Below, piece after piece: positions 1 to 1,800 of a DNA stretch of 1,800 nt. A program made the position numbers and the translations under genes. Position 1 is the first letter of the stretch. Every line of letters begins with the position of its first letter. This DNA comes from Escherichia coli (GTDB taxonomy: Bacteria > Pseudomonadota > Gammaproteobacteria > Enterobacterales > Enterobacteriaceae): assembly GCF_003334355.1 (NCBI RefSeq), contig NZ_QOWP01000080.1; one strand, written 5' to 3'. The notes under the pieces are model-generated. The model saw nothing but the letters and a program-made list of their open reading frames with translations. It was not told the DNA's origin and did no database searches.

Positions 1-1800
1 GTCAGCCTGCCGTGACGGTCATACCGGTAAAGATAGTGCGCGTCACGGGCGATACGGTTATCCGGCCACATGCTGAGGGTGCTGTCCGGGTGCAGCTCCG
101 GGTCGGGCAGGCGGTTGCCCGCCGGGTCCGTGGCATACGGGATGCGGATATCCAGATTCGCTGCGGTGGTGTGAACGCCGGTCAGCCTGCCGGTGGTGCT
201 GTAGCTGTAACTCCGGGTCTGGCGCGGGCTGCTGATGCGGATGAGTTCGCCGTTGTCGTTCCAGGTGTAATCGCGGTCATACTGCAGGCTGTTCAGGTGC
301 TGACGCTGTAACTGCCCGGCAGGGGTGTAAGCGGTGGTGAGTTCATAACGACCGAAGCTGCGCAGCGTTTCCCGGTGCAGGCGGTCGCGGGTGAAATCCA
401 CCAGCGGTGTGTCGCCGAGCTTCATGCCTGCCAGCCAGCCGCTGCCGTAGGTCAGCCATTCCACGGCGGGCAGGCTGTCCGGTATACAGCGGTTCGCCAG
501 CCCCTGCGCGTTGTACGCATGTCTGGTCTCATGCTGCCAGAGCAGTGCTTCCGTCTCCGGGTGATGCACCGTCTGGCGCTCACCGGTCAGGCGGCCTTTC
601 TCATCATACCTGTAATGCACCGCCACCCGGTGCCCTTCGCTGATATGGCTGATGTCTGTCAGCCAGCCACGTTCGTCATACTGCCACCGCTCTGCGGTTT
701 CACCCTTCACGGTGCGGTGCGTGAGGCGGTCTGCTTCGTCATAGTGCCAGTGGGTGACCAGACCCTCATCCTCGCTGCGGATAAGTTTGCCGGTCAGGTC
801 GTGGTGATAACGCTGTGTGCGGCCGTCAAAGCCGGTTTCCTGTATCAGCCGGTCAAGTACATCGTAACGGAAGGTGGTGTGGCTGCCGTTTTCACTGGTC
901 AGGCGGATGACCCGTCCGGCAGCATCGTATTCCATACTGCGCGTCAGCCCGCCCTGCGTGGTACGGACGGCCTTTCCCCACGCATCGTACTGTGTCCCGT
1001 TTCTGCTGCCGTCCGGGGCAATGACGGCGGTCAGGTCACCGGCGATGTTGTATTCATACCGCGTTTCATGGCCCTGCGTGTCTTTCACGGCAATTAACTG
1101 TCCACGGCTGTCGTATGCGCGGTACTGACTCAGCCCTTCCTCGCGGTGCACCGCCGTCATCTGCCCGAAGCGGTCATGGTCATAACGGGTTACATAACCG
1201 GAACAGTCGGTGAAGCTCAGCAACTGACCGTAACGGCTCCACGTCATGGTTTTCCGGCTGCCGGTGGCATCTTCCGTTGCGCAGGGTAAGTCACTGTGTG
1301 GATTATCATAACGGTAGCGGGTGATATCGCCGTCAGGGGCAGTTTCCTGAATCAGACGGCCCAATTCATCATATTCCCGGCGCAATTCCAGCCCGTCAGG
1401 CCCGGTGGCTGACGTTAACTGGTTGTGGTGGTTATAGTAAAACGCCGATGCCCTGCCATCCGGCGTGGTTATGCGCGTGATGAGGCCCGTCACCACATCC
1501 GGGCTGTATTCTGTTGTCCGGCCTGCGGCATCCGTCTGTGTCCTGAGCCTGCCCACGGCGTCAAACTGACTCTGCGTGACGCTGCCGTCCGCGTGTTCCT
1601 TTTTCACCACCCGCTTCAGCCCGGCTTCGCCCTGCGTGTGCAGCACTTCACGGCGGTCCAGGCTGTCGGTGATGGTGATGTGGTCTTTCTCATACTGATA
1701 CGTGTAGCTTAAGCCTGCCGGGTTAAGCTGTTCTGTCACCCGCCCGTCGCTGTCGTAACGGTAACGGATTTCCGGCCGGCCCGTGTGACGGTGCGCCACC
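1..1800 (-). CDS. Rhs-family YD-repeat core protein (RhsA-D-like polymorphic toxin scaffold), internal fragment, partial at both ends; N-terminus beyond coordinate 1800, C-terminus beyond coordinate 1
   Basis: Seen in sequence: the reverse-complement frame whose first full codon is 1799..1797 (GTG) runs 599 codons to 5..3 with no stop; coordinates 2..1 are the start of the next codon. Translation begins [74 protein letters not shown] and ends [21 protein letters not shown]. It carries many YD-repeat motifs, e.g. [127 protein letters not shown]. Composition is GC-rich (35/60 and 40/60 G+C in two hand-counted lines). Established knowledge: this motif pattern and periodicity define Rhs/YD-repeat shell proteins. 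Paralog and species cannot be assigned without a database search. Confidence 0.92.

Follow-up and report, generated by a model that had tools for sequence, protein, structure and literature searches.

The excess GC of the Escherichia coli Rhs core is already known and is a textbook case. Since the 1990s, a core of about 62% GC has been described in a host of about 51% and next to a toxin tip of about 40%. The gradual amelioration of compositionally atypical acquired DNA is described by the model of Lawrence and Ochman. The arrangement of a G+C-rich core followed by an A+T-rich extension was described by Hill's group and restated by Jackson et al. 2009 (PMC2935791), in whose view rhs is an ancient family of the enterobacteria that has been passed on mainly by vertical descent. 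The same authors note that rhs genes sharing a clade vary in base composition from one genome to another, and they present the C-terminal displacement model (PMC2935791). In the encoded proteins, a shell of YD repeats encloses a variable C-terminal toxin, and solved Rhs structures indicate that this cocoon releases the toxin autoproteolytically (PMC8636562).

The window analysed here is the whole 1,800-nt stretch of E. coli DNA (positions 1–1800), and the described systems closest to it are RhsA, RhsB, and RhsC of E. coli K-12 (the RhsA-B-C-F subfamily of Hill and co-workers, or clade I of Jackson et al. 2009). It has the same GC content, third-position GC content (GC3), reading frame, and YD-repeat content as these genes, but it is a mosaic of known core variants, and it is identical to no sequence in 5426 complete E. 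coli genomes. The K-12 RhsD protein (RhsD-E subfamily) also has a homologous GC-rich core, but the nucleotide identity of its gene to the window is only 77.8%, which therefore places RhsD in a different subfamily. Among proteins of solved structure, the relatives of the encoded fragment are the Rhs shells of type VI secretion systems (T6SS), namely Pseudomonas aeruginosa Tse5 (8cp6, E = 9e-68), Photorhabdus Tre23 (7pq5), and the Salmonella bongori Rhs core (8qjd), with E values ranging from 9e-68 to 6e-25. The homology extends across the YD-repeat shell, and by analogy the window fragment presumably shares the toxin-releasing cocoon architecture of these proteins. They are, however, distant from the window in sequence, and their base composition follows that of the host.

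Identity of the window

Only one of the six reading frames of the window is free of stop codons, and it accounts for nearly every nucleotide of the minus strand.

Positions 1–1799, minus strand: internal fragment of an Rhs core ORF of the RhsA/B/C/F subfamily, open at both ends (sole stop-free frame, 599 codons)

The translation corresponds to residues ~347–945 of an Rhs protein of ~1400 amino acids. It lies within the central YD-repeat shell and represents the middle 48% of the Rhs core. The NCBIfam model RHS_core (NF041261) matches with an E value of 0 and 1223 bits, and residues 2–599 are collinear with model positions 356–959 of 1261; the curated whole-protein cut-off of 2000 bits is unattainable for a fragment spanning 48% of the model. 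The TIGR01643 model (YD_repeat_2x), whose cut-off is 15.8, reaches 129 bits, and the Pfam RHS_repeat model (PF05593) yields 12 matches in the translation, 10 of them with E ≤ 0.001. At the DNA level, the window is 98.7% identical to both rhsA and rhsB of K-12 over all 1800 nt, which settles its membership among Rhs cores; the corresponding values are 95.9% for rhsC and 77.8% for rhsD. Judged by these alignments, the window is part of the conserved core of an ordinary E. coli Rhs polymorphic-toxin gene.

A word-indexed protein search returned only E. coli, Shigella, and Klebsiella-plasmid fragments among its best 120 matches. Close relatives in E. coli carry the RHS-associated core domain (PF03527) together with assorted toxin domains, and more distant homologues adjoin vgrG or T6SS genes. 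The window itself covers neither the N-terminal region that interacts with PAAR/VgrG nor the C-terminal toxin domain nor a cognate immunity gene. The window also includes plus-strand ORFs, such as one at positions 375–1097 (240 amino acids, GTG start). They are most readily taken for antisense shadows cast by a gene of high GC3. A scan of the window against Rfam gave no match. Internal DNA repeats consist only of two-copy matches of 14–30 nt, both direct and inverted, of which none is notable; diverged YD repeats, or chance, would be expected to give such matches.

Base composition relative to the E. coli background

The window contains 1102 G and C nucleotides among 1800 (61.2%; A 270, C 542, G 560, T 428), and the GC content of 200-nt windows ranges from 56 to 66.5% without an internal break. 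The initial annotation had put the G+C content at roughly 60% or more on the basis of two 60-nt lines counted by hand, with 35 and 40 G+C nucleotides. The exact value agrees with this estimate. Exact counts for 60-nt lines span 29–44, and the hand counts are plausible since 35 and 40 are each seen several times among them. The same annotation described the third codon positions of the Rhs frame as G/C-rich, which is borne out by values of 62.6, 47.6, and 73.5% for GC1, GC2, and GC3 in the minus-strand frame.

The host background was inferred from near-identical E. coli loci. It comprises 168 kb of E. coli J3 (three samples of 50 kb each and the sequence flanking the Rhs locus) with a GC content of 52.2%. 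Background windows of 1800 nt (n = 533) have a mean of 52.3%, a standard deviation of 3.6, and a maximum of 59.3%; none of the 533 reaches the 61.2% of the window under study, which exceeds the mean background window by 8.9 points. Likewise, long background ORFs (n = 70) have a GC3 of 59.4 ± 6.4 with a maximum of 70.0, compared to 73.5 in the window, a difference of about 14 points. Synonymous codon usage also deviates, with a scaled chi-square of 0.302 for the window versus a mean of 0.105 and a maximum of 0.235 for 15 background chunks of equal size. The assertion that the Rhs core lies markedly above its host in GC content is thus confirmed against the J3 background, by about 9 points in GC and about 14 points in GC3.

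It had also been proposed that GC and GC3 be compared with neighbouring genes, and that a window equal in GC to the surrounding genome would speak against the claim. At the closest locus, which is that of J3, the flanks have 52.9% GC overall and the adjoining chromosomal genes range from 49 to 58%, so the window stands apart from its surroundings there as well. The cores of K-12 rhsA, rhsB, and rhsC are similar to the window, with 61.8–62.0% GC and a GC3 of 72–73%, and the rhsD core has 63.8% GC and a GC3 of 76.3%.

The core/tip junction

A fall in GC content had been anticipated to the left of the window, where the core should give way to the tip. Looking left is correct for a minus-strand gene, whose 3ˊ end lies in that direction. 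In J3, the nearest relative, the drop falls outside the window, 838 nt to the left of its first position. The J3 core ends at the sequence DPIGL (residues 1221–1225), and its GC content of 61.9% (GC3 72.9) compares with 43.0% (GC3 35.4) in the 525-nt tip. Further downstream are ybfC at 36.7% GC and ISAs1-family remnants at 38–41%. The same drop is present in K-12 rhsA–D and in the gene from E. albertii, where the cores have 60.6–63.8% GC and the tips 36–40%. In K-12 RhsD, for example, the DPxGL motif is followed by an AT-rich tip of 36.3% GC.

Amino-acid and synonymous contributions to the GC excess

When the protein encoded by the window is recoded with the synonymous codon usage of the background, the resulting sequence has 56.1% GC and a GC3 of 58.1%, compared to the observed 61.2% and 73.5%. 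The mean background gene has 53.5% GC, and the window lies about 7.7 points above it; protein composition gives about 2.6 of these points and synonymous choice about 5. In other words, roughly one third of the GC excess is due to amino-acid composition and two thirds to synonymous codons. The protein is rich in Arg (10.7% versus 5.3% in the background), Thr, Asp, Tyr, His, and Gly, and GC2 is 47.6% compared to 41.8% in the background.

Some codon preferences of the window remain enterobacterial, with GAA used for 72% of Glu and CGT for 28% of Arg. Their persistence suggests that the donor may have been an enterobacterium of moderately higher GC content, or that the signature has been partly ameliorated. 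Two further features of codon usage were observed. The 33 Ser codons comprise 24 AGC, six AGT, and only three TCN, compared to a TCN share of 57% in the background, and this bias goes beyond GC content alone because TCC and TCG also end in G or C. All 26 Gln codons in the window are CAG.

Rhs cores in other hosts

Homologous cores from other hosts were sampled as representatives of 50%-identity clusters together with seven contigs. Flanking sequence was usable at three of these loci (L011, L013, and L015); the other contigs are only ~4–6 kb long and include little or no flank because Rhs repeats break assemblies. The core GC3 is close to that of the flanks at L011 (60.7 versus 61.6) and L015 (63.4 versus 65.1), and at L013 it is 84.0 compared to 75.0. 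A further homologous core, at L014, has only 36.2% GC and a GC3 of 24.8. GC richness is therefore not general to Rhs cores, and the Escherichia cores are outliers. The composition of the window had been called typical of Rhs cores, a description that holds for the cores of Escherichia but not for Rhs cores in general, whose homologues match their flanks.

The GC-rich relatives of the window are the E. albertii core (60.6% GC, GC3 71.0), K-12 rhsD (63.8%, 76.3), and a Buttiauxella core (64.4%, 78.0), all with flanks of 53–55% GC. In Buttiauxella brennerae, the ORF immediately upstream of Rhs (L004, positions 6819–8927) has a GC3 of 74.5%, compared to 58–64% further upstream, and the GC-rich block of this organism seems to extend past the Rhs core, possibly into a vgrG-like gene. 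The native flanks of L013 have 62.7% GC and a GC3 of 75.0. By comparison with these flanks, a GC3 of 73–76% is the level of native genes in a host whose coding GC content is near 62%.

No donor was found in a protein scan of the genome collection, which returned six loci that occur only in Escherichia, Buttiauxella, and contaminant contigs. Four of the six are in assemblies of unrelated organisms. Three of these are short contigs in species-representative assemblies: positions 1–433 of Frankia tisae NZ_JANEZT010000833.1, which are 100% identical to K-12 and belong to a contig with a coverage of 0.8 in its name; positions 1–544 of Streptomyces griseoloalbus BMUD01000166.1; and positions 1–2726 of the Oscillospiraceae metagenome-assembled genome (MAG) contig JAETOQ010000140.1. 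The Streptomyces and Oscillospiraceae contigs carry an Rhs core with 98–100% identity to K-12 rhsA/rhsB. All three were rejected as donors, being contigs of 433–2726 nt that equal K-12 rhsA/rhsB at 98–100%, and they are almost certainly E. coli contamination or misbinning. The fourth is a 3.6-kb contig from an Akkermansia muciniphila MAG (SFDX01000073.1, positions 764–3574) whose Rhs core has a GC3 of 76.6%. Its protein is 67% identical to that of the window and its DNA is 75% identical to rhsD; this contig is probably a misbinned enterobacterial one. Core fragments thus contaminate assemblies of unrelated organisms, even those of high GC content, where they could pass for donors.

Copies in E. 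coli and a mosaic patch

A megablast search with the window against 5426 complete E. coli genomes found matches in 3900 of them, with a median of five places per genome and a maximum of 12. Nearly all of the matching places (20421 of 20427) are on E. coli chromosomes. There is no exact copy among these 5426 genomes, and the best identity is 99.5%. This best match is the Rhs gene at the rhsC position of E. coli J3, where the gene order is kdp-ybfA-Rhs-ybfC. The two sequences differ by nine mismatches, at window positions 303, 305, 338, 351, 394, 396, 420, 431, and 1725, and their distribution defines a patch that includes a Chi sequence.

Positions 303–431, no strand assigned: mosaic patch of 129 nt with eight of the nine mismatches to the best-matching J3 locus (only position 1725 lies outside)
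Positions 398–405, minus strand: Chi sequence GCTGGTGG, a single match, inside the mosaic patch at 303–431

The region at positions 280–450 matches exactly in other genes annotated as rhsB or rhsC from many E. coli genomes. Because the patch at 303–431 is 100% identical in other E. coli Rhs cores, exchange between core copies is indicated, and the window is a mosaic of known core variants, as expected of repeats that exchange sequence. The GCTGGTGG element in the patch may be relevant to recombination between cores or may be mere chance; at least one Chi sequence occurs in 22 of 200 shuffles of the sequence. The patch that bears it could mark a conversion tract.

Age of the core and direction of base change

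The type strain of E. albertii and E. coli J3 share one collinear block of 13.1 kb with 90.3% identity. It extends from kdpE, by way of kdpA and ybfA, as far as the end of the Rhs core, and it breaks off at the core/tip junction. Within the block, the core is 91.8% identical between the two species, compared to 90.6–94.2% for the kdp genes. Given that the same kdp-ybfA site is used in E. albertii and that the core has diverged to the same degree as its flanks, any acquisition must be old and predate the split between E. coli and E. albertii. A recent arrival of the core was considered and is rejected, since the orthologous site is occupied in this sister species. On the simplest reading of the alignment, the core would already have been present at the kdp-ybfA site in the common ancestor of the two species. 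The simplest reading is also that the core is old and that tips have been exchanged independently of it, as in the C-terminal displacement model. The vertical inheritance favoured by Jackson et al. 2009 (PMC2935791) fits such an old residence and weakens a simple import story.

Fixed differences were polarised by parsimony against rhsD as outgroup, and polymorphic sites in a set of four E. coli cores against E. albertii. The ratio of GC→AT to AT→GC changes is 36:24 on the E. coli branch, which is not significant (p = 0.16) and was obtained with a GC-rich outgroup. The ratio on the E. albertii branch is 83:18 (p = 4e-11), again with the GC-rich outgroup rhsD, and among the E. coli copies it is 78:31 (p = 8e-6). 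These ratios, all of which come from Rhs cores alone, should be read with the caveat that parsimony with a GC-rich outgroup (rhsD) can inflate the number of inferred GC→AT changes. In addition, bacterial mutations are generally AT-biased, and polymorphisms in native bacterial genes are likewise biased from GC to AT. At third positions, the ratios are 26:14 on the E. coli branch, 46:11 on the E. albertii branch, and 50:18 among the E. coli copies. They are close to the range of 1.9–2.2 that is predicted if GC3 simply relaxes from 0.73 to a host value of 0.55–0.59. The core appears to be losing GC slowly toward the composition of its host, at about the pace that amelioration would predict.

The loss of GC appears much stronger on the E. 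albertii branch when the J3 core (L001, positions 11163–14837) is compared with the E. albertii core (L005). The weaker loss in E. coli may have to do with copy number and with conversion between copies. It is conceivable, albeit doubtful, that conversion between copies, perhaps GC-biased and aided by Chi, makes the foreign GC signature fade measurably more slowly. If true, multi-copy Rhs cores would keep an 'alien' composition far longer than acquired genes present in a single copy.

Origin of the GC richness

Composition, its division into amino-acid and synonymous shares, synteny with E. albertii, and the direction of substitution were observed directly, and from them we infer the foreign origin of the core and the GC content of its donor. 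The explanation that best unites these results, and that we consider likely to be correct, is a foreign and GC-rich ancestry for the core combined with an old entry, fixed sites, homogenisation of copies, and slow amelioration. The smaller share of the GC excess would be forced by a protein rich in Arg, Thr, Tyr, Asp, His, and Gly, whereas the larger, synonymous share would be the signature of a GC-richer ancestral genome with a coding GC content near 60%. Presumably, the core passed from that genome into the Escherichia lineage at a time before the separation of E. coli and E. albertii. Thereafter, it would have been passed on at fixed positions in the chromosome and copied to several places in each genome, with homogenisation among them, and its composition would be drifting slowly down toward that of the host. 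The AT-rich toxin tip and the downstream immunity gene would have a separate history.

The Rhs core resembles ameliorating acquired DNA in its GC content, GC3, codon deviation, abrupt boundary at the junction, and apparent net drift from GC to AT. Unlike a recent island, it is syntenic, has diverged to the same degree as its flanks, and is present in multiple copies that are homogenised between sites. The initial annotation took the GC richness as evidence of acquisition from a high-GC donor. This reading is supported, with the qualifications that about one third of the excess is due to amino-acid composition and that the acquisition was not recent. The refinements obtained here, namely that the signature is mainly synonymous, specific to the Escherichia cores as opposed to Rhs cores in general, older than the species split, and apparently eroding, caution against reading it as a sign of recent transfer. 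Beyond the correct annotation of the Rhs core, their significance is modest.

A foreign origin would be superfluous if the GC richness were intrinsic to a YD-repeat protein whose composition and repeats force G/C-rich codons. This proposal agrees with the enrichment of Arg, Thr, Asp, His, Tyr, and Gly, with the raised GC2, and with the recoded protein, which still has 56.1% GC versus 53.5% in the mean background gene. The L011 core points the same way, as it is 3.9 points higher in GC than its own flanks at equal GC3. However, protein composition covers only about 2.6 of the roughly 7.7 points, and GC3 is 15 points over the amino-acid-corrected expectation, an excess that largely refutes the protein as the sole cause. 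Furthermore, the existence of homologous cores with host-like GC3 and of one with 36% GC indicates that the fold tolerates any composition, and we therefore judge an intrinsic cause unlikely. An explanation far less credible still is that high expression of the gene has led to translational selection for preferred codons. Although the preference for C-ending two-fold codons (AAC 87%, CAC 77%, ATC 71%, GAC 68%) and the use of CAG for 26 of 26 Gln residues are compatible with such selection, AGG, CGG, GGG, and ATA occur at 10.0, 23.4, 18.4, and 5.0 per 1000 codons in the window versus 0.8, 6.0, 12.0, and 3.0 in the background, and GGT and CGT are under-used. Selection of this kind is rejected because the window is enriched in codons that E. 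coli genes with high expression avoid.

High GC3 might instead have been made or maintained within Escherichia by GC-biased gene conversion among recombining 3.7-kb cores. The median of five places per genome, the Chi-bearing patch at 303–431 that is identical to other copies, and the apparently slower loss of GC along the E. coli branch, with its many copies (36:24), than along that of E. albertii (83:18) are all in keeping with this mechanism. As a dominant force, however, it would give the opposite of the net change from GC to AT that is seen on every branch and among copies (78:31). Moreover, GC richness is just as high in the single syntenic copy of E. albertii and in the divergent cores of rhsD and Buttiauxella, and the recombination effects reported for E. 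coli are far below a GC3 shift of 14–15 points. These considerations make biased conversion an improbable origin for the signature. There would be no anomaly at all if the window came from a GC-rich genome or plasmid in which 61% is the local norm. That none of the 5426 complete E. coli genomes has a 100% match (the best being 99.5%) and that assemblies bearing the labels Streptomyces, Frankia, and Oscillospiraceae contain close copies could be cited in its favour. Yet the contigs so labelled are E. coli contamination, and 20421 of the 20427 matching places are on E. coli chromosomes. Outside a single patch, whose sequence is found unchanged in other E. coli copies, only one site distinguishes the window from J3. 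A GC-rich source replicon is accordingly very hard to credit, and foreign ancestry with an old entry and slow amelioration is the explanation we retain.

Sequences downstream of the core at the rhsC site

At the rhsC site, remnants of ISAs1-family transposases (ybfD, ybfQ, and ybfL) are located on the 3ˊ side of the Rhs gene in both J3 (L001, positions 7441–9846) and K-12 (L020, positions 9446–10962). In J3, the Rhs gene is followed directly by ybfC, whereas in K-12 rhsC and ybfC are separated by ybfB and a core fragment, ybfO. This difference suggests that the tip/immunity module has been swapped or deleted between the two strains.
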